Part shown: positions 1,360 through 62,999 of the stretch, piece after piece
Position numbering within the stretch: position 1 is the stretch's first letter
How the letters are laid out: every line of letters begins with the position of its first letter
From: Malacoraja senta
Taxonomy: Eukaryota
DNA length: 64,000 nt
Reading direction: 5' to 3'
Assembly (NCBI GenBank): GCA_038087875.1
Contig: CM075990.1
Span: forward strand, 6,202,001-6,266,000
The notes under the pieces: model-generated
Told to the model about the DNA's origin: nothing
The model's input: the letters and a program-made list of their open reading frames with translations, nothing else
The model's database searches: none
Translations under genes and position numbers: made by a program

Positions 1360-1524
1360 TTTAAGAAGGAACTGCAGATGCTGGAAAATTGAAGGTAGAC
1401 AAAAATGCTGGAGAAAGTCAGCGGGTGAGGCAGCATCTATGGAGCGAAGGAAATAGGTGACGTTTCGGGTCGAGATGCTCCATAGATGCTGCCTCACCCG
1501 CTGAGTTTCTCCGGCATTTTTTCC
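1360..1524. mobile_element. Palindromic Penelope-derived short element
   Basis: Inverted GATGCTGCCTCACCCGCTGA arms. 15-bp TSD CACTAAGATCTAGAG at 1345-1359 and 1525-1539. Confidence 0.75.
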
Positions 1525-2210
1525 CACTAAGATCTAGAGATCGCTGTGGGGTAAAGTTCCTTTTTTTCTAACATCAATTACGTTTTTTCACCTGATCACA
1601 TGCATCTACAGCAGTAATGTCTTCAGGAGGGCTCAGAAACCAATCACACTATAGACAAATTATCCCTGACCACAAGAGGTATTGCTCTAATGTTCAGCTA
1701 AGTTTGTTAAGTATTTGATAGAGAATTATGTTAATGCTGAGGCATTTGCTTGAATATAGCAGAAAGTGAAATATGAATGTTAAAAGCAAAATTTAATTAT
1801 TTTGAAAATTATTCACAAAGATTTAAACTTTACAAGTTAAATTGCTTTTTAAAAAGTGCTGGAGAGATATTTGACATGGATTATACTAAGCGATTAAAAA
1901 AGTTACAAGCAATTGAACAAGACTCAACTTTTAGCACTGTTTTTCTTAAGAGTGAAAATATTGCCCAAAAAGTCCACATTTTTATTATTTCCATGAATTG
2001 AATCAGATTTCAACCTACAGCGACTTAAAATCATCCTCTATTTGGGCAGGGTGACACACAAACAGCAACTTCTGAAATACAGCTATTAACAATGCAGCTA
2101 TTGCTGTCAATTTTGCAGTGGAACGTAGCAAATGCCGACAGTTTCATTGTCACTACAACTGCAAAATCTGGAGACCAGCTTGTAACCGCAGTGCCTTGAG
2201 TCTTTCCTAC

Positions 2211-2408
2211 CTTGACAACAGGCTCCCCTATACCGCCGTTCTGAAATATCCAGTGAACTGTGGGGATTACTCCATAGGCAGCGATGAAACAGAAGAGCAG
2301 AATGCGTAGCTTGTGGCAATGTTGAGAGGCGTACTGTGGATGGATTTGCGTGAGGAACATCACAACAATCATGGCCAGCACGGTTATCAGGTACACTTGT
2401 CTCCAGTA
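2211..2408 (-). CDS. PAQR3: PAQR3-like coding exon 4 (gene continues left of the window)
   Basis: YWRQVYLITVLAMIVVMFLTQIHPQYASQHCHKLRILLFCFIAAYGVIPTVHWIFQNGGIGEPVVK. gcag| acceptor, AAG|GTAGGA donor. 198 nt. The final exons were not found in 1-2210. Confidence 0.93.
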
Positions 2409-2481
2409 CTGCTTTGAGAAGGCAAGAAAACGCATATAATTACAGAGCCAGAGGGCGTCTCTCATTTTAAAAATTCTCTGT

Positions 2482-2700
2482 GGTAGATAAAAATGCTGGA
2501 GAAACTCAGCAGGTGAGGCAGCATCTATGGAGCAAAGGAATAGGCAACGTTTCGAGTCGAGACCCTTCTTCAGTCTGAAGAAAGGTCTCGACCCGAAACG
2601 TCGCCTATTCCTTCTCTTCACAGATGCTGCCTCACCTGCTGAGTTTCTCCAGCATTTTGTCTACCTTCGATTTTTCCAGCATCTGCAGTTCTTTCTTAAA
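2482..2700. mobile_element. Palindromic Penelope-derived short element with two back-to-back hammerhead cores
   Basis: GTTTCGAGTCGAGACCCTTCTTCAG-T-CTGAAGAAAGGTCTCGACCCGAAACGTC at the centre of a long inverted repeat. Confidence 0.75.
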
Positions 2701-3504
2701 ATACTCCATAGTCATTTATAAGTGACAATTTCTAAAATGTTCTTTACACACCACTAACCTCTCTACCTGGCACTAATAGCTCATGCTTAATAACACATTA
2801 ATATTACAGTAACTATACAATTACAAAGCAGAATCTGAGCAAAACCCCTTTTAGTTGTGACAGAAATGTTTTACAGATCCTGCACTCAAAATTACTTTGG
2901 TTGATTCCCTGTTTGATGGGTTTTAAGTACAATTACTTTTGCATTCTGAACATTATCTTCAGTTGATGTACATCTAGTAATTGGCCAACCCTGGATCAAT
3001 TATCTGTTCAGTACCAACCTTCTTTGGTCAAACAACATTCAGAAACATCTGCAAATTAAGTTTTAAAAGGGTTGATTTTAAATAGTTAATTGATTGTTAG
3101 CACCGGTTAATATTAATATTAATCTGCTCATTTCTGCACTGAGTATGTGCATTGGACATGTATTTATAATAATTTGAAATGCCGCATTTTATATCCCTTT
3201 TTTCCCTTTATTCCAGCTATTAATCTGATGTTAAAGTATTTTGTTCACTCTGTACAGGGTCATTGGAGTCAGTTTTGAGTTAACTTCACCAAACTAATTT
3301 AATCAAGCTCACCGCCCTTCACACTGAGGGGGAATATTTTGAGGAAGAATAATGACACCACCTTTCCATAAACTATAAGGTAGTTTCCATTTTGCTAATT
3401 ATCTACATATGATCATTTTTAGTGATCATATGCAGAGAACATTTACCTCATTGGTCTAAGATGAATTTGAATTAAGTTCCAAGTGGTGAGAAATCTATAT
3501 ACCA

Positions 3505-3817: not shown

Positions 3818-4002
3818 TCTTGTATAGAGACTTGCATATATTACATTATATACTGTATTCCATATTATATCATTGGACATCCAAAGGTCTAATTTCACTC
3901 TATTCACATATCCCACTTGTTGCTGGACATTTATTTATAGTATATACTTTTTTTAAACACCAACAATTACTTATGATTTACAAAGGACAACAAAAGACTT
4001 AC

Positions 4003-6274: not shown

Positions 6275-6940
6275 TATCTATGCCACGATGTTTCAGTGCT
6301 CATCTATATGCTTCTGAAGTGCAGTGAGAGGAGTCTCCTTCACCACCCCTCATGTTACACATTCCAGATTTCAATCACCCTCTGCATGGAAATGTCCCTT
6401 CTCCAGTACCCACTAAATTACTTACCCTGACTTTAAATCCAAGCCTTCTTGTCATGGACAACTCCGTCAAGGGTTTAAACATGATACTTGTGATTGGCAA
6501 AACATAAATTATTACAGCTTTATTCTGCTTCAAGGACCCATTTGTTAGTTAAGTAATCAAAGAATGGCGGAATGGCATGAAGGTGCTTGTCAACTATGTT
6601 CAGAGTCATTCCTGAGTTTGTTAGGAGGACACAAAATGCTGGAGTAACTCAGCGGGACAGGCAGCATCTCTGGATAAATCCTTCTTGTGTTTGTTACATT
6701 GTTTAATTCAATAAATTGAATCTCAATGCTACATAACATGTTTTATTGGACAAAGAATACAATTAAAAATAAATGTAAATAATTAGTTTAAAATGTTACT
6801 CTATGAATTTTGGGTCAGTCAGATGAAATCTTATCCACAACTACTACATTACTACTCCCAACTGATTTGAACAAAATGAGGGCTAACTAAATCATAGCAC
6901 AAATGGACTACCATCTTTTTTTTAACAAGTTGTAACTATT

Positions 6941-7477
6941 TACGGTGATGCGGTGGTGAAGCTGGTAGAGCTGCTGCCTCACGGCACCAGAGATCCAGTC
7001 TCGATCCTGACCTCGGGAGCTGTCTGTGAGGCGTTTGCACGTTCTCCTTGTGAGGCGTGGGTTTCCTCTGGCTGTTCTGGTTTCTTCCCACATCCCAAAG
7101 ACGTGCTGGTTTGCAGGTAGGAAGGAACTGCAGATGCTGGTTTACATCGAAGATAGTTACAAAATGTTGGAGTAACTCAGCAGGACAGGCGGCATCTCTG
7201 GACAGAAGTAATGGGTGACATTTCGGGTCCAGACCCTTCTTCTTCTTCTTAAGTCTGAAGGTCTCGACCCGAAGTGTCACTCATTCCTTCTACCCTGAGA
7301 TGCTGCCTGTCCCGCTGAGTTTTGTCCCGCTGTCCAGCATTTTGTGTCTATCTTCTGGTTTGTAGGTTGATTGGCTTCTATAATTTGCCCCTAGTGTGTA
7401 GGGAGTGGACAGTGGTATAACATGCAACTAGTTTGAATGGGAGAAAGGGCCTGTTTCCATGCTGTATCTCTAAACTA
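6941..7477 (+). mobile_element. V-SINE interrupted by a Penelope-derived element
   Basis: tRNA-like head, V-domain, tail ending TCTCTAAACTA. Confidence 0.7.
7119..7354. mobile_element. Palindromic Penelope-derived element nested in a V-SINE
   Basis: TSD CTGGTTTG(C/T)AGGT at 7106-7118 and 7355-7367 splits the host SINE. Confidence 0.72.
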
Positions 7478-8585: not shown

Positions 8586-8754
8586 AGTAGGAAGGAACTG
8601 CAGATGCCGGTTTACACCAAAGATAGACACAAAATAGAGAACCAAACTCCAGTCTGAAGCAGGGTGGTCGATCCGAATCATCACCTATTACTTTTCTCCA
8701 GAGATGCTGCCTGACCCGCTGAGTGACTCCAGCATTTTGTGTCCCTCTTCACAC
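8586..8754. mobile_element. Penelope-derived element nested in a V-SINE
   Basis: TSD TGGTTCTAGG at 8576-8585 and 8755-8764. Degenerate CTGAAG...CCGAA core. Confidence 0.7.
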
Positions 8755-10085: not shown

Positions 10086-11198
10086 GACTATGATCGTGCT
10101 TCTTCGCCACAGTCAAGATTCACCACTGAGAGGCAGCAGATAAAACATAGCGTTATGTTGAAACAATGAAGATTTGTATCACGAGACACAAAGTACTGCA
10201 GACGCTGGAATCTGGAGCAAAACACAAAGAGCTGCGAGAAAATGGGTAAGGGGCTGCATCCGTTCCTTCTTTAGATTTTAATTACTACCTGCTCCTTCCC
10301 TGTTTAAGAGTTATCGTTGGAAAAACATTAACTGGTCTTTAAAAAGGTGGCAGCAAATTATAATAAAGAATGACAATGTTCTAAAAATCCACCAGCTGAA
10401 CACGAATCAGTTTTGTTTAGGATTTGCAAAGAATGTACCACCTACAAAATAACTCAAGCAGACTGGGAATCCATCCTCCCACTTCAAATATATTTCAACT
10501 AGCACAGTGTGTCATCTGCAAGATGCACTGCAGAGTCTTGCCGAGGGTATTCCAACAGTGGCTCCCACACCCATGATCTTGGAGGATCAGGGCAAGCCAC
10601 CAACTGCAGCTTCGGCTCCACGTTGACATTGTCTTAGACGCCACAAGCCCTTCATTATCACAGGGTCGAAATGCTAGAATATTTCTTTCAGATACAAAGT
10701 GCAAGCAGCACTTTAAGCTAGCATTGACCACCACCTTCTCGAAGACTATTAGACACGGTCAGTAAATCTTGATCTTGATAGCAATGCTCAAAAGATGAAG
10801 AAGTCACTGAAGACCTTTGAAAAATCTTTAAATCGGACTTTATCTTGCACTAAAATGGTACACGCTTTATCCTCATGTGTACACTGTGGACGGCTTGATT
10901 GTAATCATGTGTAGTCTTTTCCTTGACTGGACAGCACGCAACAGAAGCTTTTCACTGTACCTCGCTACACGTGACAATAATAAAATAAAGTACGTTAATA
11001 AAAATAATGTAGAACAAAGGCACCAAAGATGTTGGCGAATAGACAAAAGGCTACAAAGTGCTGGAAAAACTCAGCGTGTTAGGCAGCATCTCTGGAGAAC
11101 ATGGATAAATTAATTACGTTTCAGGTTACACCCCTTCTTCAGACCCAAAACATCTGCGATCCATGTTCACCAGAGATGCTGCCTGACCTGCCGACTTA

Positions 11199-13449: not shown

Positions 13450-14236
13450 CTTGTGTTGACAACCTAAATCTAAAGGAAAGAGGGCAGGTTAATTTTTGGT
13501 TGAAGTAATATCAAATCCAAACAGAGTAATCTCCAAAGTCAAACTGGAGAAAGAAAATATTGTCCTGGGTCAGGCGGCATCTGTGGAGAGAGAAATAGAT
13601 TTTAACCTCAGGTTTATGACCATGTGGGAACTGAAAGCGAGGAAACAAGCATGTTTTATGTTCAAAGTAGAAACAAAGAACGGCAAATTCTGGTTTACAA
13701 AAAAGTGTTAAGAGTAACTTATCATGGAAAATGAAAATATTGTCCTGGGTCACGTGGCATCTGAGGAGGGAGAAATAGATCAGGAGACCCTCGGACTATC
13801 CTTGAGCAGACTTTGCTGGCTTTACCTTGCACTAAACGTTATTTCCTTATCACGTATCAAATCACTGGAAATGGCTCGACTGTAATCATGTATTGTCTTT
13901 CCGCTGACTGGATAGCACGCAACAAAAAGCTTTTTACTGTACCTTGGTACACGTGACAATAATAAACTAAATTAAAGTAGATTTTAACTTCACAGATTTG
14001 TGACTGTGAGAACTGAAAGTGAGGAAAGCATGTTTTATCTTAAAAGTAAAAACAAGGAACTGCAAATTCTGGTTTACATATAAAGACAGCACTGGTGTAA
14101 CTCATCAGATCAGGCAGTATCTCTGGAAAACATGGATAGGTGACAGTTTGAGACAGGACCCTTCTATAGACTGACAGCATTAGGTCACCTAGGCAGGAGT
14201 GGAGAGGTGAAAGGTGTAACTGCTGACTCAAACACA

Positions 14237-17775: not shown

Positions 17776-19947
17776 TCCAGATGACAAACTACTGTTGGTG
17801 TCTCTAAGGGAGGGTGTGGAATGCTCACTAATCATCGCTATTCTCTCTGGAGGATTGCAAGAGGAAAATCAGTGAGCAGGAAGGAAATGAAATAAAAGCT
17901 GCAACTGTCAGCTGTAGAACACAGAAAACTGAAAAAACAAGGAAATGCCCAACGATGGAAATACTCAATATCATCAGGTGGCAACTGCGGCGAGTGAAAA
18001 TACGAAGTTAAATGTTACGGGTAGATGTCCTTGTATCAACACTGGCCAACTGGAAAGGCTATCTTAAATGCCTTTTTCGTTGACTATTTCCTTCGCTCCA
18101 TAGATGCTGCCTCTCCCGCTGAGTTTTTCCAGCATCTGCAGTTCCTTCTTAAACAGCCTATCTTAAATGTTTGAAGTTAAAAATAGAGTCCCAAGGGCTG
18201 TAATGTGCTCAGGTGGATGATGACATCGTGAAGATGGATGTTGTTGCAATATTTTCAATTACGGATCTCATCTTCCATCCAGCCACATTGCAGCCCTAGG
18301 GGCTCAGTACAGAATTCAACAATTGCAGATCTCCACCCTTCCATGCTCATGTTCAAACTGCCTCGTTCTGATGACAGGTCAGAACATTAACATTACAGGT
18401 ACAGACCCTGTAACATTAATTCGATTTCTCTCTCCCTAGATGCTACACTAACCTCTGAGCACTTCCTGAGATCAAACAGCTGCTGCCATCTGCATCTCAC
18501 ATTTCCAGCATTTTCTTCCTCCCCATGGACCCAATTCACATCCCTCTATTTCCACCCCTCAGAGCAACCATGATAAACAAACCTTTAGCACCCTCTATGA
18601 TAAGGCAACAATAGTATTTGTGTTACCTGGGCAATCCTGAATACTACCCCTATCATTGACTTCCCCTGTTCTTTGTTCACCTCTCCCCCATCTCTCCAAT
18701 TTAAACATACTTGGTCTTTCACTTTTTCCAGTTCTGATAAAAAAACTATTGCTCAGGACACTGCATCTCCCTCCACGGATGCTGCTTTTCCTGCTGTGTA
18801 TCGCCAGTATTTACTGTTTTTCTTTCCATTTCATTTTTTGCTTTTTGAATATTGTTATTCTGTTCAATTAACATAACGATGCATAATAAAACATAGAACA
18901 GTACAGCAAAGAGCAGGCCCTTTAGCACACATCTGTGCCAAACATGTTGCAAAGACCCTCACTATTCTACCGGCACATAACCCATATCCCTCCATTCAAA
19001 AATTATGAAAAGATACTAAGCTGTATAATATGAATCTTCCATAATATTCTCTATTAAAACATTTGAATGTTCTGCAATTCCTGGAATGAGTATATGGCTT
19101 GTGATTAATAGTGTTCCTTGGTGTTCATATACAATTAATTATGCTCTGGACAAACAATGCTCAGCTTTTACAGAGAACAAAGAACAGTACTGCTCTAGAA
19201 CAGGCTCTTTGGCCCACAATGTCTGAGCCAACTATGCTGCCAAATAAAACTAATCCCATCTGTCTGCACATCATCCATTTCTCTCCATTCCCCATGTTTA
19301 TGTGCCTGTGAAACCTCTGCTTAAACTTGCCTCAAAATACAAAAAAAAAACAGCCACATTAAGTTATGTTAACCATTAAAATTCTAGTAGTGGAGACATA
19401 AGAAACTGCAGATGCTGGTTTACAAAAGAAACAAAGCTCAGGAGTAACTTAGCGAGTCAGGCAGCATCTCTGGAGAACACAAATAGGTGGGGGTTCAGGT
19501 TGGGACAACTTCTTCAGACAATTTTCTAGTGGTACTAGCCTCGTCCACAACCGTTAGAAAGATTTTCACAATGTATTGTACGATCTCTTAAGGCACAAAA
19601 TTTGTCTGCAATATATCATAAAATTAATATTGATACACAATGCACACTATTGAGCTTCCATTTCCTCACCAGAACATCTACAATCTATTGATTATACAGA
19701 CCTGATTTCAAGTCAAGTATTTATTGTGATGTGCACCAGTATAGTGAGGCACAGGAGCAATGAAATATCGTGTTTGGAGCATCATCACAGGCACATAGAC
19801 TCAGATGACACTCAAGAACATAAGTTACACATTAATATGCAAACAGCAAAAATAAAAAGGTTGTGCAAAACTAACTAAATATCAGTGCACGAGGTGGTCC
19901 ATTGTGCCCATTGCTAATGTAGGATTAGGTTTGTGCAGGTTAGTTCA

Positions 19948-20280: not shown

Positions 20281-23200
20281 TGATGGTTGTTGGAAAGTAG
20301 ATATTCCTGTATCTGGTGGCATGCGACTTCAGGTTTCTGTACCTCCTGCCCTATTGTAGCAGTGAGAAGTGGGAGTGTCCCAGGTGGTCAGGAACTTTGA
20401 TGATAGATGCCAAATGCCACCTTCAAGGCGGCATCACAAGTATATGCTTTTGATGCTGGGGAGGGTAGTTTGTGTGATGGAATGAGTCGAGTCTACCACT
20501 CTCTGCAGCCTCTTGCAATGATGCGTGTCAGAATTGCGATTGAATTTCAAGGTCTCTGTACATTTATCCCAGATAGAAAGAAAGAGGGATCCCATGAGAA
20601 AGATGGACTATCTGAAGTTATCACAGGAGATAGGGAAAAATATTAAATTAAAAATGAGAGCCTACTATGTTGAAATGGCTAGTGGTAGACCAGCGATCTG
20701 GGAATTTTACCAGCAGCACAAGACAAACAATTAACAAGGAGGGAGAAAATTGATGGCGGAATCCTGGCACATAATATATAAACAAATAGAAAGGGCGTCT
20801 CTGTATATACAAAAAGGAAGAAGGTAGCAAATATATGTATGGGACACCTGAAGTTCAAAGCATGGAAACTGAAATGTCAGATAATGTAAACCAAGTTTGC
20901 ATTAGTCTTAACAGTGCAAGACATTATAAATATTTCAAAGATATCTAAAATACACGGAACTGCAGATGTTGGTCTAATACAAAAAATACGTAAAATGCTG
21001 GAGTAGTTCAATGGGTCAAGCAGCATCCCTGGAGAACATGGGGAGGTGATGTTTCGGGTTGGGCATCATCAGACACTTCTTCAGCCCTAGTGAAGGGCCC
21101 CCACTCAAAACGTCACTTATCCATGATCTCCAGGGATGCTGCCTGACCCGCTGAGCATTTTGTGCCTTTCCTTAGTAAATGAGCATCTGCAGTTCCATGT
21201 TTCTTCAAATAGTATGATATAAGTTTAACAATCCCTACCACAAGTGTTTGTAAAAAATAGAACTGAAGACAAATGTCACCAGATCATAATGCCCTGTTTG
21301 GTGGGTTTTAAAGGAAGTGGTGACAGAAATAAAGGAGCCGTTGGTTGAAATTTTTCAAAACTTCCCAAAGAAGCGAGGGTTTTTACATTAGTTGACTTCT
21401 GTAAATTGCTTCAAGCACTGCAGGGGAATGGACGAGAAAGGGATAACATTAAACTAGTGTGAAAGTGCTATTGATGGTCAGCGTGGATTCAATGGGCCGA
21501 GGGGCCTGCTACATCTCTGAACTAAACTCCTTTATCTGATCAAAATATATAACGGAAAGCTTCACATTACAGGAAGCCAACTGTAAACTAATCTGATAAA
21601 GCCTTAAGTATTCTACACTGCTGTATAATGATGCAACATCATTTTTGGAACAAGTTATTGGACTAATTGTAATTATTTAAAAGGTAAGGCTCCACATAAT
21701 GTGAATATTGATATCATTCTGCAGGGAGACTTAACATGAATCAAAAATGTTATTTCAATGTAAAAAAGATCCTGCAATCACAAAAAGATGATGCGCATTA
21801 AGATGCATTTAGGTTGCAGCTTTAGTGCGATGAAAAAATAGATTATATTTTGCGGTCGTTAAAAATCCACACATTTTGCAAAGCTTACAGACTATATTGG
21901 TCAACAGGTCTTTACTGGTGTGTACAAAAGCTTCTTCTCATTTAATCCCATCAAAATATCCCTCAGTTCCTTCCAGATTTATCTATCTGCACCTTGCAAG
22001 AATTTATGCTGTTCACCTCAAAAATTCCCATGATTTCCTTTTTCACTCCAGTCAATCCCTCATCTCCCCTCACCTGTCGGGAAGGACAAAACCTTGAAAG
22101 TGTGCACAACCAGATTCAGGAACAGCATCTTCCCCTCTTACCAGACTATTGAATGGTCCATCCAGAAGCTAGGGCATAGTTCCAATCTTCCAACCTACCT
22201 CAATGCAGTCATTGGACTTTTTCCTCTGGAAATGTAACACTCCAATGCTGTAAAACTATATTCTACACTCTGGTGTGATTCTCTTTGCAATGTTGCACTT
22301 GCGTGTGGCTCGATTCTACTCATATTCAGTGTGATCTGATTTAACTGGATAGCAAGCAATTGGAAAAGCTTTGCACCTACATCATTGCCTCAGTACCCTT
22401 TTTAATAATAGTGAAAATAGTCTAGAGTTGCTCATTAAATTCCTGACGTTCTTCCTAAAGTGATTCCTAATTCAAGACTGAAACAAGCAAAATAACCCAC
22501 CTTTGATGCGAGTTTGAGTCTTCACCAGATGGTCTTATACTTCCCAAGGTTAACATTACAAGACCCATAATTACATTAAGATAACATAACAGGTTTACAA
22601 AAAATTAGATCCACTCGACCTCAGGCTTAAATAGTAATGAGATTCCCGACTGTGCTCCTGAAATATTTATATATTAATTTCACCGGGAAACTCGTGTGAG
22701 CAGAACCATGGAAGTGCAGAGCACTCCTTCTCAGTGTAAAAGGGTTGCTGGTGCAGAAATGGCAGATATTGTTCCAACAGTATTAGCAAAATTCAAATTT
22801 AACTTTGAAAATATTCACCATCCATTCCTTATTATAGTCCAGCCATTGTTATCAGGGAAACCATCATCTCATACCCTTCCTGTTCAACACATACACACTG
22901 CTGGAATTCTCTCACATATATAAAAAGCTCTATCAAATAAATAATTTTGCAATAATATTTTCCTTTTGTTGCTCTTTTGACACTGTATTCATGATGATCA
23001 CTCACAAGTTTTGAGGTCCAGCTCACTGTGGAATAACAATACTCCATTGTTCAATCTCTGCTTCAAGTACAGAAGTACAAAGTGTTGACTTTTGTCTGAT
23101 TATGTTCTGCTGAAGTGCCACGGACGATTTTCTATGTTAAAAGAAATTACATGAATGCACACTGTTCTCAATGTCACAATCGGAGAATTTTAAGATCTGC

Positions 23201-40432: not shown

Positions 40433-41483
40433 AAACTGCACTAGCATGATTGAACCGCATTTCTTCTTCAGCAGTCCCTTGGGATTGAGGATGACTTACT
40501 TCCACATTGGTCTGTAGGTGGCTGATAAGAGCGATGTGGGAACTAGATTCTTTCACAATTGAGTCAGGAAGTGCCTGATGGGATGGGTGGATAGATGGTT
40601 TGTTATGCCATGTATTCCATCTGCCATTTACTCAGTAATTCATCTTTCAATAGCATCCTGAATCTTCCATCATCACTTAAATCGGTCAAGGGGCAAACAA
40701 TTGTCAGGAGTCAGTGGAGATGCTGCATTTCTTCAAGAAAGCTTTAAACACATCCTTGAATATTTTCCTCTGGTTTTCTGGTAATCTCTTCTCATGACAG
40801 AGCTTGGAATGGAATTGTCTATTTCAGGAGTCTGGTGGCGTCCACACAAATTGTAGCCGATTAAGTATAAGTAGAGCCTCCATAGTAGGGATTTAACCTG
40901 AGAGTGGACACAGACCTCAGTTGGCCTGTATTTACAGTGAATTTGGACGATTTTGCAGAGACAACGTGGTGGTATCTGCCCAGTGCTGAGAGCAGCACAA
41001 TTACCATTTCCTTCACAATATACATACAGAGTCAAATCTTTGCTCTCTTTCTGTTGCACCTTAAAGTATGATTTTATTGCACTGAAAAGCAGACAATTAA
41101 GTGGGTAAGTTAAAGTGATTCATCGTGAATGATCATGGATGTGAATGCACATTTATTTATGGATACACACGGAACTGCAAGGTGTTGCAGCTAGCTTGAG
41201 CAAAACACAAAATGTTGAAGTAATTCAGCAGACCAGGCAGCATCTGTAGAGGAAATGGATTGGCAATGTTTTGGGTAAGGACACTTCTTCAGAGTCTCAA
41301 GAAGGGTCCCTGCACAGATGCTGACTGACCAGCTGAGTTATTCCAGCACTTTTCTATTTTGCATATTTATTTTTATTGGGTGATTATTGTTCATTAGTAA
41401 ACTGCTGGGTACTACAATTAATATGAGCCATAATTTGAAACCCAGTAGTAGGAAATACTGATATATAATATTTTCTTTTATAG

Positions 41484-45290: not shown

Positions 45291-46427
45291 AGTAGCAAGT
45301 TTTAAGTTATAGAGTAGTGGGAGGGAGCGAGGGTGGGAGAAAATAAGATAGGTAAGAGACCAAGACAAACTGACACACAAGGAAGTGGTGGCAACTGAGA
45401 GAGGGTGGTGAAAGCTTTTGCATCAGAGTTGATCTCTCTGATCAAGATGTAATTAGATTACAGAGAAGTAACGAATAAATACGGAGGTTGCAGTTGCTTG
45501 AAAGACCAGCAGATCAAGGAAAGTCTGTGGAGATTTAAAAAGTCAAATTTCATTAGAACTAACCGGGCGGGATTTCTGAAATTGTTGAATTCGTTGTGAC
45601 TTAAGGGCGGTAACATGCCTGCTAGCAATATGAAATGGTGTTTATAGAGCTTGCGTTAAGCTTCATTGGAATGATGAAATTGGCCACAGGAAAGGAAATC
45701 AAGAGAAGGGTGGCGAATTGGAGTGACAGGCAACAGGTGGGTTTTGAAATTAAACAGAAGTGTTGTTTGGTGTAGGAACTGCAGATGCTGGTTAAAACAC
45801 AAAAGTGCTGGAGTAACTCAGCATGTCAGGCAGCATCTCTGAAGAACATGGATAGTTGACGTTTCGGGCCGGGACCCTTCTTCAGTCTTCACCTGTCCAT
45901 GTTCTCCAGAGATGCGGCCTGACCCGCTGAGTTATTGCAGCACAGTGTTCAAATGGGTCATCTGATATGTGTTTGGTTTCTCCAATGTAGAGGAGAATCT
46001 TTGGTGCATCATTTATTCTCTATAGTGTAGTGACGTCTCATTCAGATACTAATGGCTTTCCATTGAAAATTGTCTTTATTCTAGTTTGTAGTTTCACTTT
46101 TAAAAATCAAAGTTGCATTTATTGTCATGCACAAGTATGGTGAGGTACAGGTACAATGGAAACCTTGCTTGCAGCAGCATCACAGACACATAGACACAGA
46201 CAACCAAAACCATACATTATACATTCACCTTCATTTCAGCAAGATGGTAAAAAGAAGGAAAAAAATGTGGAAAAAAACAGGACTGCTATATTAAAAATAT
46301 GCACCATGTGATTGTTAGTTGTTACTGGAGATCATTTTATGGTTATTCTGAAATTCTTAATATGTGTGGTTGGAAGGTGGTTGTGGAATTGCACTATTTC
46401 ATGTCGTTCTCTCTTTCTCTCATCTAG

Positions 46428-46497: not shown

Positions 46498-47378
46498 GTA
46501 TTTTGCTTACTAATCTGGTTTTAATTGAAATGTTCACCAAATATAGCTCCCACCAGATCCCTGAGAGGGATATGGTGGAACTTCTTAGCTGACTCATAAC
46601 AGATTTAGTTATATATGGAATTCTGGATATTGATCCAAAAGAATCCAAATGGATTTTTCTTCCACTTTGTCAGAAAGAGCCCATTGCATCAATGTCCAAT
46701 ATAGTCTTTAACAGAATCCTCCTTATTAATGACACTGGTGTTCAAAAATACCACAGACAAAAATACCAATACTAAGATAGACACAGAATGCTGGAGTATC
46801 TCAGCGGGACAAGCTCCATCTCTGGATAGAAGGAAAGGGTGACGTTTCGGGTTGAAACGCTTCTTCAAACTGAGAGTCAGGGGAGTGATAGACACAGAGA
46901 TAAGGAAGGGTAAACTGTGTGAAAACAAATCATTGTTAGCCAGGAGAAGGTGACAACAAAGCATACAGAGATAAAATGTAATTGGTATTGTACAACATTA
47001 AAATATGTTTGTAAAACAGTTTCCCACCCAGGAGTTCCTAAAGAAAACATTTGAGAAAAAGGGAGAAAAAATAATATTAATATTCAAGGGAGAGGGTAAG
47101 AGGCCAGGCAGAAAAAAGAAAAGAAAAAGTAGACATTACAGCATGCAGCATAGTCCTGAATATTTTTCCATTAAAAACCAAACCACTGACAGATTATAGC
47201 TCCTGTGGGTTTGATTTAATTAAGATCAAAATGTAGTCAGTAATCAACAATTGAGTGTCAGAACCTTGGGTTGTAGTTCTCTTTGATTTAGTTTTCCTGC
47301 TGTACACTCTTCAAATAATTCAATAATTGTCGCATCACATAAAACATTAAGATGCTGTATTTTGTTTCACATTTATAG

Positions 47379-48139: not shown

Positions 48140-48988
48140 TACACAAAAATGCTGGAGAAACTCAGCGGGTGCAGCAGCATCTATGGAGCGAAGGAAATAG
48201 GTAACGTTTCGGGCCGAAACCCTTCTTCAGACTGATAGGGGGTGGGGAGAAGAAAGGAAAAAAGGAAAAAGGCGGAGGAGGAGCCCGAGGGCTGGGGGAG
48301 GGGAGGAGACAACCAGATGGCTGATGAAGGGGAGGGGACAGCAAGGGCTAGCAGAATTGGGAGAATTCAATGTTCAGGCCACCAGGATGTAGACTGCCCA
48401 AGCGGAATATGAGGTGCATTTCCTACAATTTACGGTGTTGCTCGCTGTGGCCATGGAGGAGACCCAGGACAGAGAGGTCAGATACGGAATGGGAGGGGGA
48501 GTTGAAGTGCTGAGCCACCGGGAGTTCAGGTTGGTTATTGCGGACCGACCGGAGGTGTTCGGCGAAACGATCGCCAAGCCTCCGCTTGGTCTCACCGATG
48601 TAGATCAGCTGGCATCTAGAGCAGCGAATGCAATAGATGAGTTTGGAGGAGATGCAGGTGAACCTCTGTCGCACCTGGAACGACTGCTTGGGTCCTTGAA
48701 TGGAGTGGAGGGGGGAGGTGAAGGGACAAGTGTTGCATCTCTTGCAGTTGCAAGGGAAAGTACCAGGGGAGGGGGTGGTATGGGAGGGAAGGGAAGAATT
48801 GACAAGGGAGTTAAGGAGGGAGCGGTCTTTGCGGAAGGCAGACATGGGGGGAGATGGGAAGATGTGGCGAGTGGTGGGGTCACGTTGGAGGTGGCGAAAC
48901 TGACGGAGGATCACTTGTTGTATGTGACGGCTGGTGGGGTGAAAGGTGAGGACTAGGGGGACTCTGCCTTTGTTGTGAGTGGGGGGAT
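48140..48988 (-). mobile_element. Penelope-like element 3' fragment: GIY-YIG endonuclease plus hammerhead-containing terminal repeat
   Basis: ORF 48914-48423 has CxxC and IYCIRCSRCQLIYIGETKRRLGDRFAEH (GIY-YIG). Hammerhead core at 48230-48203. Flanking GTTTAAGGGGG duplication at 48129 and 48989. Confidence 0.9.
48203..48230 (-). ncRNA. Minimal hammerhead ribozyme core (Penelope-type)
   Basis: CUGAAGA-A-GGGU(UUCG)GCCC-GAAAC-GUU: conserved CUGANGA and GAAA boxes around a 4-bp stem II, with a palindromic AACGUU stem III. Activity not demonstrated. Confidence 0.6.
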
Positions 48989-49433
48989 GTTTAAGGGGGG
49001 TTTAAGGGGGCCCAGTTATGGAAAATACTGAAAAATATATTCTGCTCAATCATGTTAACAATCTCTAGTTGCTTTTATGTCTCATACCTTGTATTATTTC
49101 TATTAGTATAGTTTTGTCAGAGGGATATTGTAAAGATATTGCCAGGTTTCTAGTATTGTTTCTTGCATGATATACCGCTTCAAGTCCTCTCTTCCCAACT
49201 TGCAAATTTCATGCTATTCAAAGCCTAGTTTATTTTACAGAAAGTTAATTTTGAATCATATTCAGATTTTGGGACAGTTGCTAAAAATAATTTGATGATT
49301 GAAGGGTTATGCAACATATTTTATTAAATTTTGCATTTATGAACATGGTGTACATTAGGTAGGTGTTTATTTGGAATGGTTTAAGAAATCCATGGATTAT
49401 TTTGAGTTCTCATTTGATTATTTTTCATTGCAG

Positions 49434-50949: not shown

Positions 50950-52975
50950 TATTTTCCTTAATCTGTACAAAATTTGGATATGTTCAGTGGGAGCATGTTC
51001 TGTACATGTATTGAGAATATCTGTGTAGGAAAGAACTTCAGATGCTGGTTTGAATCGAAGATAGACACAAAATGATGGAGTAACTCAGCAGGACAGGCAG
51101 CATCTCTGGAGAGAAGGAATGGGTGACGTTTCGGGTCGAGGTGGGTCTGAAGAAGGTTCTCGACCCGAATCGACACCCATTCCTTCCCTTCAGAGATGCT
51201 GCCAGTTCCACTGAGTTACTCCAGCATTTTATGTCTACTAAGAATATCTATTGTCAGCCGAGTTGTAAAGCTGGAGACATATTTGGCAAATGTCTTGTAT
51301 CTGCTGATCTTAAGATACTTCATATGATATTCATCCACTTTCCTCTGGCCCCTATAACAAAGCCAAAGTAATCGAATTCTTGTCCTTTTGACTTTTCTCT
51401 GACCTGTTCTGTTAGATGGTTATATTTTTCACTTCTTTCTTCCTATGCCTTGGTGAGACACTGGTCGCTATTCTTGAACCAGATTGTCACGTCTACCACA
51501 GCTGCCACCATTTCCTTTGCAAATATTAGATCTGCCTTCAAATCTTAGTGCACCATCATCAAATCTTAAATGAGGTTTCACAACAGTCGACCAACCATAT
51601 TTGCCTGCCTTTTCTTTCAGGCACTCCATGATCATTTTGCGTCTTTTGATTTTTGCATTCTTGATGCTTAGGCACCAACCGGAGATATGTTCTATCTAGG
51701 GTCTCATTGGATACTTCACATCTTCTGTACATTTTGATATGTTGTGTCCTTCCATAACTGGTTGTGCATCTTGTTAAAGATTGCACTTGAGCAAAAGTCT
51801 GGTGCGATTTCCAGCCGTTATTGTACACCATCCATGAGTTTTATGAACTTTTATCCTCACGCTTTTTATCCTATATCTTTGGCAAATTAGACGCGTCAAT
51901 TTTTGGTACTCTGGACCTCTCCAGTTACAATAGATGTTGGATGGGTTCTGTCTTCCTTTGTCTGAGGTTGGATCTGCTATGGGGCCTCTTTGTCATGCCT
52001 TCGTGGTATACTTTTCTTCTGGAATTCTTCAATTTCTTTAAGAACATCCAGTGATTTCAATTACTCCACCTGGGTAATATTTTTCTTTCTTGTCATTTGG
52101 ATCACGCTTCAATAACGTTATCATCAGAATGTTCCAAGGATAATCTTTCCCTGATGACAACTGATGGTATTTGAACCTCTAGTTTGGGCAGGCACAGTCC
52201 CTTGAATAGAGGATCCCATCCTTCGTCTCACTTGGCAGGTGGAGGATCTGTTACCGTTTTCTTTATGAGAGTAAGGTGGAAATACACTCTTGGGACCTCG
52301 TGGGCTCTATTGATCTAAACTTTCTGTTATGGTTTCAACTCTGTGTTCTTGAGGCTGTCAAACCATTTATCGAGCTTTGAGTGGCAGTTTTCTTTGGTTA
52401 CTCCTGGTTGATCATGCGCCAAGATATTTCTCGATCTCCCCTGGTTTGATATATATGATTGAGCCCTTGTTAATAATCCAGTTCTTCAACGCAATGTTGA
52501 CAAATGGCTTTCTCCTGCTCGCTCACCATATGGAAGCCATTGGTCTTTTTCACATTTACCTCCAGGCTGGTGCCCAGGAAAAAAGTCTGCAGGATTTTCA
52601 TGTTTTCTGTCATTCCAGTGTCAGATTCCCTCAGGATTGCAATGTCATTGCGAAGGCATGAGCTGCACAGCTGTTATATGCTGTTCTCCTCTCATCCACA
52701 CTCATTTTTTCCTTTTCCTAGAGCGTACAAATTAGAGGGTCCATCGCTATGTTAAAGACATTGGATTCCCTTGTTTGATGCCTCTTATAATAAGTATGGG
52801 CTCTGTTCCCTCCTTGCTAACCAACCACCATGATTGTATCAGTGCATAGATCTTCAATGAGATTATGAACCTTTCGAGTGAATTAAACAGCAATCTGACA
52901 AAATCAAATGCTTTAGCCATGTCTACAAAGACAACTACTTATTTGAGTCTCTTTGTGTATCTTGCAACTGCTACC
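50950..52975 (-). mobile_element. Decayed R2-clade non-LTR retrotransposon (RT, CCHC knuckle, restriction-like endonuclease)
   Basis: Manual minus-strand translation gives VVFVDMAKAFD (52938-52903), GIKQGNPMS and FNIAMDPL, AFA-DIAIL, EKYLG, LKP*QK, YRRC..ETL..HISGWC, KADLIF..VVDVTI, KY and FVIGARGKW. Many stops and frameshifts. Boundaries approximate. Confidence 0.85.
51023..51240. mobile_element. Palindromic Penelope-derived element nested in the R2 fossil
   Basis: TSD AGAATATCT at 51014-51022 and 51241-51249. Inverted arms. Confidence 0.75.
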
Positions 52976-54167: not shown

Positions 54168-55748
54168 GTAAGTCAGCTGCGGGAGATGCCCCCCTCCTGC
54201 CCTATACGTGGGCTCTAGGCTCATCCCTTGCCCTGCCGTGGACACGGCTTTTCCATGGGCTTGCGCTTTGGTAAAACATCTCTCACTGTGTTTTCACATC
54301 GGGAGGCTATCTTCACCGTTTTCTGTTCTATGTTCCAACTTATTGTGAAATTGCTTTTAACTAAAACCCGATGTTTTTGGGGCCTGTTTTAATTCCCTTA
54401 TATGGTAGTGCATATGTTTTCCTTACGTGTCACTACAGAATGTGTAAGCCGTGGGGGAGAAGGCTCGATGGAAACAAATACTCTTATCAAAATGCGTTTG
54501 GAAAATAGTATCTTGGACTGCCCAGACTTTCCATAAGATTACTCCAAACTGGACAGAAGCGAAGTGGGTTATTCTCAGTGATAGCAGAGTTGGATTAAGG
54601 CCGAGTTAGGGGGTCTGACATAGAGGGTCTCAAACTGACATTCAGAGACAACACGTACTAGTGTACAGTGACTGTATAGTCTTGGAATTTTGGGTGTGAT
54701 CATATTATTCAAAAGTTCCCCTTTTTTAACGAGACCCGAACATGAAGCCACTGGTAAAACCCACACTTCTTCCCAGGTTATATAATGACCATTTTCCTCC
54801 AATCTGTATTTTTTTAAGCAAATCATATTCTACAACAGAAAACAGACGCTTGATGTGATGCTTTTATGTTGTTTTGCATTTATCTCAACTCGTAGTTTTA
54901 TATTTTTAACTTTTAAATGCATTTTTTTAAGCGATAAAAGTTTTTTTTTAAACTTTGATCTTGCTCCATGTAATATACTTGTATAGTCGACAGTAAAACT
55001 TTCCAGCATCTGCAGTTCCTTCTTAAACAGGATGCAAACTTTATTGTGCTCACTTAATGAGGTAATATGGAAAATCAACTAAATCCTAAATCAATACATC
55101 AATTTCCTGTGGTCCCTTACCTAAGCAAAATGATGATGGACAATAGGTGCAGGAGTAGGCCATTCGGCCTTTCGAGCCAGCACTGCCATTCAATGTGATC
55201 ATGACTGATCATCCCCAATCAGTACCCCGTTCCTGCCTTCTCCCCATATCCCCTGACGTATGATGTACGTGGAAACTCAGTGCTACCACTCATCAGGGCT
55301 ATTTGACATTACCAACTTGGTGGTAAATCAGAGCTTTTTTCTGTTAATGTATTTTAAGAGGGAGTTCAATTACAGACTAGATTTTCGTACATAATCTCTG
55401 ATATAAAATGATAGTCACTGGGAAAGAGAGGGCGCCTTTACTAATACTCATCACTGCTACTGGAAAAAATTGTCACACCTCTTCTGAAGCACTCACTGGA
55501 GTTACAGTTGTTAGAAATCCAATGGACGGTATTTTTACGAGGGTATCTCAGACTAGCTTCCTTCACACGGTGGAACCTCCTGTGTTGTGGAATTTAATGT
55601 CCTGGATTATTGTTGGTCACAATCCAGCATTGAATGAGGATAAACCTGAAAACAAGTTACCAAAGGTGCACTGCAGTGCTCGGACACGCCTACAGCGGGC
55701 ATGCAGAGTTGGGGGTGAGCCATGACTGTGAAATGGAGCACACTGCAT

Positions 55749-55842
55749 CTGAAGAAGGGTCTCGACCCGAAACATTGCCTATTTCCTTCACTCCATAGAT
55801 GCTGCCTCACCCACTGAGTTTCTCCAGCATTTTTGTCTACCT
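55749..55842 (+). mobile_element. Penelope-derived unit with hammerhead-like core
   Basis: CTGAAGAAGGGTCTCGACCCGAAAC followed by the family tail GATGCTGCCTCACCCACTGAGTTTCTCCAGCATTTTTGTC. Confidence 0.7.
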
Positions 55843-57851: not shown

Positions 57852-59157
57852 AACCTGGACACATTTGTTTCGCTTCCTGAAGTGCTTTTGAATTGCTTTT
57901 GGCAAGGTAGTGGTGAATTGCACCTTGAATTGTAGCAGTCCTTTTTGGTGAAGGTCTTCTTGGGTAAGGACTACCAGCATTTAGACCCATGAAGGATCAA
58001 GGATCTGTGATAGATTTCCATGTCAGACAACGGTAAGAAATTTGGAGGAGAGCGTCCAGATAATGGGTACTCATGAGCATAAAGCCTTTTTCCTTCTTGG
58101 TGGTAATGGTCACAGGCTTCTGAGTTGCTGTTGGAGTGGTGTGGATGGGTGGCTGTTTAGGATCGTTGATGGGGTGCCAGTGCCACAGGCTCACTTGAAT
58201 TCGATGTTGTTGAGTTTCTTGAGAGTTGTTGGACTCCACTTGTCCAAGCAAGTAGCAAGTCCAAGAGAGAGTTGGATGTGGCTCTTAGGGCTAATGGAAT
58301 CAAGGGATATGGGAAGAAAGCAGGAACGGGGTAAGTAAGGCAGCAATCTGATGGTGTCAAATTCTTCTTTTGTGCACTGGAGTATCAGCCCAGGTCTTGA
58401 GGTGAAACACCAGAGCAGGACAAATCCTCAATCAGTCACAAACCTGGGTTGCAACAGATGACGACCAGGGCAATGAGATATTTGAAGTTTAGTTAAATAT
58501 TGTCAAGTGTACTGAAGTACAGTGAAAAGCTTATGTTTGAGTGCTATCCAGTCAAAGAAAAGACTATACATAAATCCAGTCTGAAGAAGGGTCTTGACTC
58601 AAAGCGTCACCACTTCCTTATCTCCAGAGATGATTCCTAACCCGCTGAGTTACTCCAGCATTTTGTGTCTATCTTCATACAGGATTGCGATCTAGCCATC
58701 CACAATTCACAGATGAAAGATAAAGGGTACAGCAGTTAGTGCATGATAAAGTCAGACTAAAGATAGTTAAGGTCTCCAAGAAGGTAGATGGGAGGTCAGG
58801 ACTGCATTCTAGCTGATGAGAGGAGTGTATAGTTGCCTGATTACAGCTTTGCTTCCTGAAGTTGCTCGCAATCTCCTCTGTATGGCTGACATTGGGGGAG
58901 AGGTTAAAGCACAGTGTTCGGGCATGCGTTCAACAGAGTTTCAGGTTGAATCCTGATGCTGGGTTAGTCATTCCTTTCCGTCCACAGGTGCTGCCTGACC
59001 CACTGAGATCATCCAGTTGTTTGTTGGTCCAAAGTCACATCCTCCATTATTTTGCTAAGACACACCCAAAGTTCCGAGAGCACTAGGATCTTTGGACACA
59101 CCCATGCCTGTTGAACAGGTTTACTCAGGTGCAACTGGTTTTTGAGTCTGCTGCAAG

Positions 59158-59850: not shown

Positions 59851-60588
59851 GGCCTGAAAGCATTGCTCTCGAGACATTTTTGGTGCTCCTTTTAGAGTGG
59901 CTAAAATGGTGCAGAAGGACTGCTTTGTCAAGGTGGTCCTTATTTAAGCATCTACCTTGGATGCATCTGAACCACTGGGTGTAATTGTGATGCCTGGTCC
60001 TTCCTTTACAAGACTGAGCTCAGGGCATGGATGAGAATCTAGCAGTCTCTTTGACATGGTGAGGGAAGGGGAGGGGATGATGCAACAGATGGTAGCATTG
60101 CCTTGGAACAAAAGGTCCAGAGAGAGTCCAGGTAGGTCAGGAACACTGAAGTCTGGAGAAAGGGTTCAGTCTTTGGTGCCAAGTAAGTGGCAGTGAGGCA
60201 AAGGTGACTGAAGAAGAACACAGTGCACTGGGCTTGGAATTCATGAAGATGAGGAAGTAAGAGAAGGAAGTTAAGGGCTGGTTATCCACGATTGAAGAGG
60301 GCCAGATCAGAAGGAAGCGGCAAAGAGTATAGCACGAGTGTATTGGGTTCAGAAGAAAGGACAAGGACAAAGGACAAAGGACATTTATTATCATATACAC
60401 CAATTGGTGCAGTGAAATTCGACTTGCCAATGCAGCACACGAATAAAGATAATACACAACATTAAAGAATTTAACAGTAAACATAAAAACATCCCCCCAC
60501 AATGGTTCCCATTGTGGGGGAAAGCAGCAAAAGTCGAGTCCCAAAAGGTCATTGTATATTAATGATTTGGCTTAATTTTATGGCCTAA

Positions 60589-60969
60589 AGGGCCTGCCCC
60601 ACTTAGGAGACCTAAACAGCAACCTCTGGTGACCTTGTCCGCCACCCAAAAAAAAGGCAAGGTCGAGGTGACCTGTAACCTCCTACCACCTCCTTACGCA
60701 GATGTTGAAAACCTTCCTCGACTATGAAGAAAACCGGCTTCGACTAGACCTGCGACTAAAAAATTATCGATTTAAAAAACGGCAACCTATTTTTAGTCGA
60801 GGCCGGTTTTAAACATGATGAAAAAATAGCGGCAACCTAGATGAAGCCTCGACCACGTGGAAACCACTTTCGACCATTAGGGAGAGTGACCAAAACCGCA
60901 TGGAAACCTTGGGTGGCGGGTAAGGTCACCAGAGGTTGCTGTTTAGGTCTCCTAAGTGGGACAGGCCCT
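60589..60969. mobile_element. PIF/Harbinger MITE #4
   Basis: TAA|AGGGCCTGCCCCACTTAGGAGACCTAAACAGCAACCTCTGGTGACCTT...AAGGTCACCAGAGGTTGCTGTTTAGGTCTCCTAAGTGGGACAGGCCCT|TAA. Confidence 0.85.
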
Positions 60970-61168
60970 TAATTCTACAACTATCATTTATGACTTTAGT
61001 ATTTGTATTTAGTGGTTATTGAAGCTTATGTAGTCTGCCTGAATAGAAGAAGGGAAAAGTCAAATAGGAACCTCGTGGGGGTGGGGGGGGCACCTTTTCA
61101 CACAGATGGTGGAGGTTAAATGGAACAAGCTGCCAGAGGAGGTGGTTGAGGCAGGTACTATAACAACA

Positions 61169-61461
61169 TTTTAGTTTAGAGATACAGCACGGAAACAGGC
61201 CCTTCAGCCCACCGGGTCACCGCACATTAACACCATCCTACACCCACTAGGGACAATTTTTTTCATTTACCAAGCCAATTAACCTACAAACCTGTACATC
61301 TTTGGAATGTGGGAGGAAAACGAAGATCTCGGAGAAAACCCACGCAGGTCATGGGGAGAACATACAAACTCCGCACAGACAGCACCCTTAATCGGGATCG
61401 AGCCCGGGTCTCCGGGGCTGCATTCGCTGTAAGGCAGCAACTCCACCGCTGCGCCACCGTG
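61169..61461 (-). mobile_element. V-SINE inserted in a CR1 fragment
   Basis: Same family. The CR1 3' sequence on the left (61050-61168) resumes at about 61463. Confidence 0.75.
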
Positions 61462-62999
61462 ACTTAAAAGACATTTGGACTAATACATGGATTTCCTTTA
61501 CCCTAGATTACTATGGTGTGGTCAGTCTGATCATGGCTATTGGATGGTAACAGGGCTCCTATGGGACTACTGAAGGGTTTCCTTCCTTCTCTGACTTTGT
61601 AGAGAAAGGACATGGTTTTCATCTAACATCCCTTCTCTCCCTTGTTCAAAGATGAACAGCATAATTGGCAACTGAATCCTCCTACCACAACCAGAGAGCA
61701 GTGCTGAACTACTATCTACATCATTGATGTCCCTTGGACTATCCTTGATCGGACCTTGCTGGCTTTACCTTGCACTAAACATTATTCCCTTATCATGTAC
61801 CTATACACTGTAAATGGACCGAATGTAATCATGTATTGTTTTTCTGCTGACTGGATAGCACGCAACAAAAGGCTTTTCACCGTACCTCGGTACACGTGAC
61901 AATAAACTAAACTAAACAGGGTTCAGGCTGGTGAACGTTCTTGTACCACACCTGTCTTGTTTCTCATCGCAGCTGAAATGTGATCAAATGCATTGTGAAA
62001 GAAGATATTGTTTGAAAATATTTTTATTTTCTCTTCCCAACCCCAAAAGGAAACGTCTTAAATAACACAATGTCAGCCTTGTCTGATGTTCTCTGCGTTC
62101 CAGGATATATGTAAACTTCAATCTCACTGACTAATCAGTGCTGTGCTAACTCACTCTTCCTCTTTGTTGTCTTGTAGCATTTATATTCTTTATGTTTTTA
62201 TGTGTTATCTGAGTCTATATGCATCCGATGCTGCTGCAAGCAAGATTTTCATTGTACTTTTACATATGACAATAAACTTGACTTGTAGAAACAAAGAACT
62301 CCTTTATACCAAAGATAGATACAAAGTGCTACAGTAACGCAGCGGGTCAGGCAGCATCTCTGGAGAACATGGATATGTGACGTTTAAGTCTGAAGAAGGG
62401 CACCGACCCAAAATATCACCTATCCTTTTTCTCCAGAGATGCTGTCTGACCCGCTGAGTTACTTCAGCAATTTGTGTCTATCTTTCGTCTTGACTTGCAG
62501 TTCTCTGCCTGTAAGTGACCAATGGACGGTGTGATTGATTGAGTGAGGGTGATTCATTTGAGGTGCCAGCATGTCCTACGCCAAGATTCCCTACGCCACA
62601 CCTTTTCTCCTCGAACAACATGACATTTGTGGTTTCTCACTTTGTGTGTGTTGACTGCCATATATATCCCAGTACAGGCTCTACATGCGTTATCAGCATT
62701 TTGTGTATGGACAGCCTGTACCAATGAGCAGGTGTGTGGGAGATCAGTGGGGTGGATTTGCCAGCTGCTGCCAGCATCTTCTGCCATGTGGGAACAAGGC
62801 ACTCCCGTCTGCCTTTTTTCTCCTTCCCACTGGTGCCTGCCCACAGCCCAAGCTGCTACACTTGGAGGCTGTGTGGAGTAAAGCAGAGTTGGGCAGACTC
62901 ACTCCCTCACTCGCCAAGTCAGTGAGTCCAGCTGGCGACCACTCGGCCCGCGCCTGCTTGCTCTCCCGTCACAGCTGTTTCGGTTGCAAACAATTCTCT

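Follow-up and report, generated by a model that had tools for sequence, protein, structure and literature searches.

Head-to-head and single fragments of a Neptune/Nematis-type Penelope-like element, most beginning at nearly one base upstream of a hammerhead motif, in a 64-kb stretch of the Malacoraja senta genome

The DNA analysed here, referred to as the window, is a 64-kb stretch of Malacoraja senta (Eukaryota; NCBI GenBank assembly GCA_038087875.1, contig CM075990.1, positions 6,202,001 to 6,266,000 of the forward strand) in which host genes are interspersed with short repeats derived from a Penelope-like element (PLE). A PAQR3-like gene lies on the minus strand, with exons matching Pfam HlyIII at 9056-9274, 3970-4179 and about 2110-2408 and a first coding exon near 13300, the segment from 13.5 to 28.4 kb being presumably its intron 1. 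NFU1, recognised by a Pfam match, lies on the plus strand, and a GFPT1-like gene may have its first exon at 54161, as suggested by a 7-nt first-exon motif, a CpG island and the synteny expected here. The Pfam scan took in 533 of the 579 open reading frames (ORFs) of at least 48 aa, plus four chosen ORFs. A first-pass annotation had seen the repeats as seeded through the introns of all three genes; the PAQR3-like gene and NFU1 are backed by Pfam matches, the third gene is a candidate only, and the copy at 51 kb is probably intergenic.

Profile searches, with models built from window copies, recovered 40 arms (single copies of the repeat unit) with a core profile and 44 with a tail-extended one, the latter spreading over 31 loci and occupying 4016 bp, or 6.3% of the window. 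This bears out an earlier count of more than 20 short Penelope-derived units, and a reversed-window control of the profile search returned nothing better than E 0.86. The arms, which fall into several subfamilies, some with upstream untranslated region (UTR) or ORF attached (in the window and at loose ends of public contigs), have defined ends and no coding sequence, as would a PLE derivative resembling a short interspersed element (SINE). Miniature inverted-repeat transposable elements (MITEs) were considered and rejected, since these have symmetric terminal inverted repeats and target-site duplications (TSDs) of fixed length, whereas the ends here are asymmetric and the TSDs measure 11-17 nt.

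The parentage of the unit is visible at a single locus. In the last NFU1 intron, antisense to the gene, lies a 5'-truncated Neptune/Nematis-type PLE (48140..48989, minus strand; 15-nt TSD at 48125/48996), which reads, in order, the end of the reverse transcriptase (RT) region, a C-x4-C-x2-C linker, a GIY-YIG endonuclease, a pyrimidine-rich UTR of about 150 nt and the unit itself, with its short end. The unit makes up the last 90 bp, that is, the 3' end of this fragment, just as the first-pass annotation had it. The copy carries a premature stop near 48423, and its ORF matches PF01541 (GIY-YIG) at E 1.5e-4, with two cysteines between GIY and YIG (C127/C130) and Y123/Y134 conserved (alignment A1). 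Upstream of the endonuclease, C84-x4-C89-x2-C92 provides the CX2-5CxxC linker by which endonuclease-containing (EN+) PLEs are defined (PMC8557442). The best named relatives are shark and ray proteins with 54-65% identity, and although the window copy is truncated in the RT, relatives carrying PF00078 align to it. Judged by ORF motifs and relatives, rather than by RT phylogeny, the units are the pseudo-long-terminal-repeat (pLTR) end of a Neptune/Nematis-type PLE. An ORF start inside the unit was rejected: two frames are partly open, each is closed by a stop in some subfamily, and full-length relatives offered no clear match. In the window's own organism, summed contig depth on the unit is roughly 4-8 times that on the ORF, a figure that was not used, depth being unfit for ranking parts. 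As a hint only, organism F may have an empty site here, with an equal depth value on both flanks of 48137-49019, one such contig of 315 nt and no joining row among those listed. Elsewhere in the window, eight PLE proteins used as queries matched no further ORF piece, so 30 of the 31 loci are non-coding.

The unit contains what had been described as a hammerhead ribozyme core. In the NFU1 copy, a minimal type I core (48203..48230, minus strand) consists of CUGAAGA, a bulged A, a 4-bp stem II and GAAA, together with a palindromic ACGU, a GUU triplet and a helix I of 2 bp, and the initiator-like TCAGT sits just upstream (48235-48231, minus strand). The proposed check against Rfam went the other way, no hammerhead family appearing among the seven window matches at E ≤ 1. 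The case for the motif comes instead from distantly related PLEs, sampled at 97 loci with about 30-53% identity at the protein level. Among the 79 with enough downstream DNA, 28 have a strict minimal hammerhead downstream of the ORF, and 27 of these 28 are found 154-292 nt past the endonuclease match, with that of the window at 195; the controls yielded none in 79 antisense stretches, one in 64 upstream ones and two in 1580 shuffles. Stem II also shows the covariation that had been named as a test, with 96.9% of cells paired and double changes in three of its four pairs in 16 hand-picked sequences. Across the whole motif, the same sequences pair in 88.8% of cells and show double changes in 8 of 10 pairs, counts that kinship inflates, and slid alignment controls pair in 20-36%. 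Because it is homologous and covaries in distant PLE relatives, the motif is, by homology, a real and old PLE ribozyme.

Among those relatives, loci L082-L090 and L095 have downstream ribozyme matches by a model (R1) that were missed by the strict CUGA pattern, and an upstream copy at L086 has the core variant CCGAUGA. R1 was built from window and relative sequences, and its 20 and 86 matches are therefore partly circular. Loci L081-L097 come from contigs filed as bacterial genomes, 13 of the 17 from one metagenome-assembled genome, and most likely represent animal host DNA in bins. Exact-pattern scans of metagenome and viral contigs gave no match, and none of 71 candidates from a protein scan of viral contigs was confirmed.

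In the window itself, the ribozyme has fared less well. CUGANGA, GAAA, an NUH site and the bulged 5' base of stem II are all present in the family, but only 9 of 25 core-spanning arms are intact with a stem II of at least 3 bp. Of six examples singled out at first, those at 24272, 48230 and 55749 pass, whereas the first stem II pair is broken at 2575 and GAAA is broken at 58580 and 62390. The palindromic stem III was correctly recognised, being ACGU in six of the nine intact arms, AUAU in one and broken in two. Helix I does not exceed 2 bp in 24 of the 25 core-spanning arms, short of the 4-5 bp expected and of the 3-6 bp seen in most relatives; a 2-bp helix I is described as a Drosophila virilis variant (PMC4209133). 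In predicted folding of the 48230 and 24272 copies, stem II is populated 0-4%, and for both copies, which are intact but have a helix I of 2 bp, the active dimer lies 18-19 kcal/mol above the dimer minimum. The ribozyme thus appears weak in the window family, with the majority of genomic copies probably inactive; PLE ribozymes usually show activity that is low or depends on protein (PMC4209133, PMC11167929).

These features bear on the first interpretation of the units as retrozyme-like. A non-LTR retrozyme would be excised by its hammerheads, circularised and reinserted. A hammerhead core with a dimer-type helix III would suit such an element, and a PLE origin of animal retrozymes has been proposed (bioRxiv 10.64898/2026.07.22.740005). 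However, 23 of the 44 arms begin at the core or before it, with 5' ends some 30 nt upstream of the cut site, and only 2-3 of the 44 begin near that site; the 2-bp helix I and the predicted cost of the active dimer point the same way. None of the 21 Tandem Repeats Finder (TRF) rows in the window is an array of the unit, the ribozyme is of minimal type and the ends are not set by cleavage. With no tandem arrays in the window and with 5' ends located before the core, the units are not regarded as retrozymes, a reading to which we attach very little probability.

Many arms are instead arranged as inverted pairs, which the first-pass annotation took for tail-to-tail palindromes. The arms actually meet at their 5' (ribozyme) ends with the tails pointing outwards, that is, head-to-head. 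Of the palindromes then listed, pairs were recovered at 2480-2700, 7119-7354, 20952-21201, 51023-51238 and 62289-62488; the arms at 27650-27900 are only 64% alike, with partner ranks of 22 and 25 of 27, and are therefore probably two separate insertions. The 2480..2700 palindrome is near-perfect, centred on CAG-T-CTG at 2571-2577, with a tail on the right arm only and no TSD found. The left arm is tailed at 7119..7354 (with CTT slippage at the centre), at 41159..41359, at 51023..51238 and, partially, at 62289..62488, while 20952..21201 has tails on both arms and no TSD found. Further pairs join a long tailed minus arm without CUGA to a short plus arm (1362..1524), a tail-only left arm to a complete short right arm (8586..8747) and a tailed left arm with an intact core to a right arm starting near the cleavage site (45772..45948). 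The pair at 11023..11198 is joined by microhomology, its right arm stopping at an unrelated inverted-repeat element from 11199. Clusters of four arms of different ages (27485..27979, probably several insertions) and of an old inverted pair (61% alike) plus one fragment (30131..30519) suggest, by their mixed ages, insertion into or beside older copies.

Five quoted TSDs stood, after small shifts and with at most one mismatch each, at 1345/1525 (17 nt), 7106/7355 (13 nt), 8569/8748 (17 nt), 18056/18155 (15 nt) and 51012/51239 (11 nt), and three were added at 41146/41360 (13 nt), 48125/48996 and 62277/62489 (12 nt). Flanking direct repeats of at least 13 nt occur at 6 of 31 loci versus 2 of 400 random sites (Fisher p 2e-6). 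At the other end of the arms, model 3' ends are bimodal, with 18 arms ending at 89-105, 21 at 121-131 and 5 elsewhere (two long ones are model overruns), the two types differing by a tail of about 35 nt. In the 12 inverted pairs, the tail is present on one arm only in eight, on both in two and on neither in one, the last pair being cut by another insertion. The same two 3' ends are found in invertebrate relatives, where opposite end types are combined in 10 of the 11 inverted pairs that could be read, a short palindrome in L055 among them. Partner arms usually belong to one subfamily, ranking in the top three by similarity in at least one direction in 7 of 11 pairs. The published pattern of PLE insertion comprises inverted 5' copies, TSDs of 8-17 bp and a one-ended tail, the inverted 5'-truncated copy and the tail being described for EN+ PLEs (PMC8557442).

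What sets the family apart is its 5' edge. The core is reached by 23 of the 44 arms, and 19 of these 23 stop within 8 nt upstream of C3, the remaining four running on into UTR or ORF (three judged by eye). A similar edge is seen in public contigs matched to 47900-49100 (134944, 69493, 97146 and 9181 from four runs of two organisms, of known or probable DNA origin or of unknown type): among the loose ends listed, all those running upstream leave the core at 48232-48236 (62-448 contigs per row, with low agreement of 0.32-0.44), those at 48235 being partly another subfamily's UTR, and none of the listed ones is at the cleavage site, 48202. The sequence at the edge, TCAGT, fits the initiator consensus. 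Internal promoters with an initiator are described for Drosophila Penelope (PMC2377424). Run-off of the cDNA at the 5' end of autonomous transcripts is the cause that we prefer for this edge, at slightly below even odds. Cleavage just upstream of the core was rejected, helices I and III being unable to form there, and a spliced template (a pyrimidine tract and CAG precede the core, as in D. virilis) found no common upstream exon in the listed loose ends or in the window.

Single arms share this behaviour to varying degrees. Those at 14052..14173 (minus, long, core decayed) and 58577..58677 (plus, short, GAAA decayed) start at CAGT, and 18071..18154 (plus, tailed, with an internal deletion and the 15-nt TSD above) starts near the cleavage site. 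The short arm at 24255..24366 (plus, core intact) extends about 15 nt into upstream UTR from another subfamily, which it has in common with the short arm at 46768..46890 (minus), and the long arm at 39148..39270 (minus, GAAA decayed) retains a few bases of upstream UTR. The core is intact in an older arm at 25334..25423 (minus, stem II 3 bp) and in a short one at 55748..55842 (plus), where the helix III palindrome was lost through CpG decay, and decayed in the long arm at 19399..19519 (minus), which has a 10-nt flanking repeat (p 0.07). Two pieces lack the core, a truncated arm at 6623..6685 (minus; 11-nt flanking repeat 6613/6686) and an old fragment at 58970..59025 (plus).

A common edge could also arise by ordinary 5' truncation of long cDNAs at TCAG-T-CTGA, the RT stalling at the pyrimidine tract or the cDNA priming itself on this mini-palindrome. 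The 2480-2700 palindrome is centred exactly there, young partner arms are in the top three by similarity in several pairs, and junction palindromes have been interpreted as self-priming (PMC3846280). Yet single, non-inverted arms share the start point, only one arm reaches the mini-palindrome in most pairs, and fold-back alone leaves the other fixed 3' end of the second arm unexplained, which makes this explanation doubtful. A different challenge is a true non-autonomous, SINE-like family, in essence the view of the first-pass annotation without the retrozyme label, whose short masters (about 130 nt plus downstream sequence) would be transcribed from their own start and moved in trans with the help of the PLE protein. 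Ends that are fixed on both the 5' and the 3' side, the 30 loci without ORF and the existence of several subfamilies would all be expected of it, and pLTR sequences are enough for trans-mobilisation in rotifers (PMC3846280). It has to accommodate, however, a youngest subfamily with an ORF-linked copy, another subfamily occurring with its own upstream UTR (both from the window and contig loose ends) and the requirement of an anole PLE template for sequence downstream of the RT start sites (PMC11167929), which is missing from the inserted units. We consider such a family a serious contender but, on balance, unlikely.

Our overall account, which we hold to be probable, is that an elasmobranch Neptune/Nematis-type PLE left the units behind as insertion products, that the ribozyme was inherited from the source elements and that the units are now decaying neutrally. 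Insertion would proceed as follows: (i) the GIY-YIG endonuclease would cut both target strands 11-17 nt apart, as the TSDs suggest, both-strand cutting being reported in vitro for an anole PLE (PMC11167929); (ii) each free end could prime the RT at either of two internal sites in the pLTR RNA, of which the one about 90 nt downstream of CUGA would yield the short end and the one at about 125 nt the tailed end, in keeping with the two 3' ends seen in the window and with two RT start sites in vitro (PMC11167929); (iii) synthesis of most cDNAs would stop 1-6 nt before the core, the likeliest reason being that the transcript itself begins at TCAGT, so that a cDNA primed on the 5' pLTR copy would run off; and (iv) where both ends are extended, the cDNAs would be joined head-to-head by microhomology, and otherwise inserted singly. 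The join could sometimes use the TCAG-T-CTGA mini-palindrome of the element, which would leave a palindrome tailed on one side, and the templates would be RNA not cut at the hammerhead.

Several observations weigh against this account. ORF sequence is present at only 1 of the 31 loci, which fits a separate short non-autonomous family as well, and for many single arms no TSD could be detected. Conservation in the arms is higher for core columns than for other non-CpG columns (251 of 268 versus 2260 of 2761), a difference expected from subfamily differences, from which selection on the copies is not separated. Comparison of arm with arm does not separate one template from two. The loose-end evidence consists of the listed rows, six per run, with a further 3396 beyond them, and the role of TCAGT as a transcript start is read from DNA; the same letters form a possible splice acceptor as well as the mini-palindrome and are not conserved in invertebrate relatives. 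In these relatives, none of 19 inverted arms starts within 8 nt of C3, a comparison that is not like for like, the loci having been picked by ORF, and six of the 19 start at -78 to -90 from the core (L020, L037, L050, L058, L068 and L094), which hints at a preferred 5' end of their own, perhaps specific to each family.

A more daring version, which we put forward as a speculation with rather less than an even chance, is that 'strong-stop-like' products of a PLE fill the genome in sharks and rays, the two nicked target strands each priming internally on the 5' pLTR of uncut transcripts, running off the capped end at TCAGT and annealing via the ribozyme mini-palindrome. If true, the very numerous copies would preserve, like fossils, the point where transcription starts, the two RT start sites, the stagger of the cuts and the use of dimer templates, the question of twin priming versus self-priming would be settled for PLEs, and a genome-wide source of intronic double-stranded RNA (dsRNA) would be at hand. 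How PLEs make inverted, tailed insertions is described as unresolved (PMC8557442, PMC3846280), and a very abundant vertebrate family whose 3' ends are fixed at two positions and whose 5' ends are fixed at one, with clean TSDs, offers test material for twin priming, fold-back and run-off.

The element type and the inverted and tailed structure are already known, the unusual property being that most pieces begin at nearly one base. EN+ PLEs of the Neptune/Nematis type share with the window family a C-terminal GIY-YIG with CxxC inside the motif, the CX2-5CxxC linker, a hammerhead-bearing pLTR, 5' truncation, an inverted 5' copy, a 30-40 bp tail at one end only and TSDs of variable length, whereas the window copies are mostly just the last 90-130 bp, with one common 5' edge immediately before the ribozyme (PMC8557442). 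Penelope in Adineta vaga likewise has head-to-head inverted pLTRs, junction palindromes, a one-arm tail, an initiator-like motif in the pLTR, solo pLTRs and TSDs (there of 8-10 bp), but its copy number is low and self-priming on an antisense template is favoured by the authors (PMC3846280). In Anolis carolinensis, the Poseidon element PAc has its tail delimited by two RT start sites, which lie about 110-150 nt beyond the hammerhead, and it cuts and extends both strands and uses uncut RNA as template, although it belongs to another clade (Poseidon) and its ORF starts in stem II (PMC11167929). The minimal hammerheads of metazoan PLEs have the same CUGANGA, bulged base before stem II, G-C first pair, GAAA and palindromic helix III, and were noted in 2014 to occur both as numerous scattered single motifs and as closely spaced pairs on opposite strands; they differ by a helix I of 4-5 bp against 2 bp in the window family, and the available part of that paper mentions no sharks or rays (PMC4209133). 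Non-LTR retrozymes are similarly short, non-coding, hammerhead-bearing and PLE-related with long TSDs, but form head-to-tail tandem repeats that give circles, in contrast to the dispersed single or inverted pieces of the window (PMC7229834; bioRxiv 10.64898/2026.07.22.740005). That preprint sampled one chondrichthyan and counted monomers of tandem families, and the window family may overlap with its families. The shark/ray family and its fixed 5' end were not found described in a literature search that covered mostly titles and the openings of abstracts, outside Dfam, Repbase and subscription journals, and the repeat may well be catalogued already.

As for the consequences for host genes, the suggestion that palindromes create long dsRNA is borne out by prediction, 2475-2705 folding at -164.9 kcal/mol (z -20.8), and long hairpins would form if such loci are transcribed. 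The related idea that an antisense arm silences the ribozyme is physically right, in that a hairpin would bury both cores, but explains little, because the predicted folds of single arms already depart from the active shape, most cores are decayed and orientation is balanced, with 11 core-bearing arms sense and 11 antisense in host genes. An apparent antisense bias, 6 of 6 in NFU1, was thus dropped, having disappeared across all genes. Strong predicted hairpins, one of them about 70 nt from a splice acceptor, and the 6 of 6 in NFU1 might be taken to speak for host-selected intronic ribozymes or hairpins regulating the PAQR3-like, NFU1 and GFPT1-like transcripts. Against this stand the overall 11:11, the decay of most cores and a density like that of ordinary repeat load. 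With orientation balanced and CpG columns, the least conserved in the arm alignment (188 of 266), decaying fastest, nothing here points to host selection, and we regard it as highly improbable.

In the PAQR3-like gene, about 70 nt (2408-2480) separate the end of the 220-bp hairpin from the 3' splice site downstream of it, which puts the hairpin close to the expected branch point, and a CpG island between this gene and NFU1 (28400-29300), with a minus-strand splice donor near 28403, is possibly a bidirectional promoter. Five palindromic segments (2501-2648, 7210-7284, 51069-51231, 1398-1519 and 27694-27843) match microRNA (miRNA) or small RNA models of Rfam below gathering thresholds. Such palindromes are an annotation hazard, matching plant miRNA models sub-threshold and resembling MITEs or retrozymes.

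The window also holds other mobile elements. Inside a PAQR3-like intron, an uninterrupted 343-aa frame for a Tc1/mariner transposase (5025-6056, plus strand), with helix-turn-helix and DDE_3 Pfam matches, is probably a young insertion, and broken, CpG-rich pol fragments of an LTR retrotransposon (RVT_1, RT_RNaseH) lie at 14400-17800 on the minus strand. Transposon debris includes a Tc1-like piece (32216-32853, minus), an RT-like piece (39635-40057, plus) and an unassigned frame resembling a long interspersed element (52750-52938, minus). Two related inverted-repeat (MITE-like) elements with similar termini are found at 11199-11596, where the first adjoins the cut end of a Penelope palindrome, and at 34672-34928, and further long inverted pairs occupy 26506-26849 and 60588-60970.

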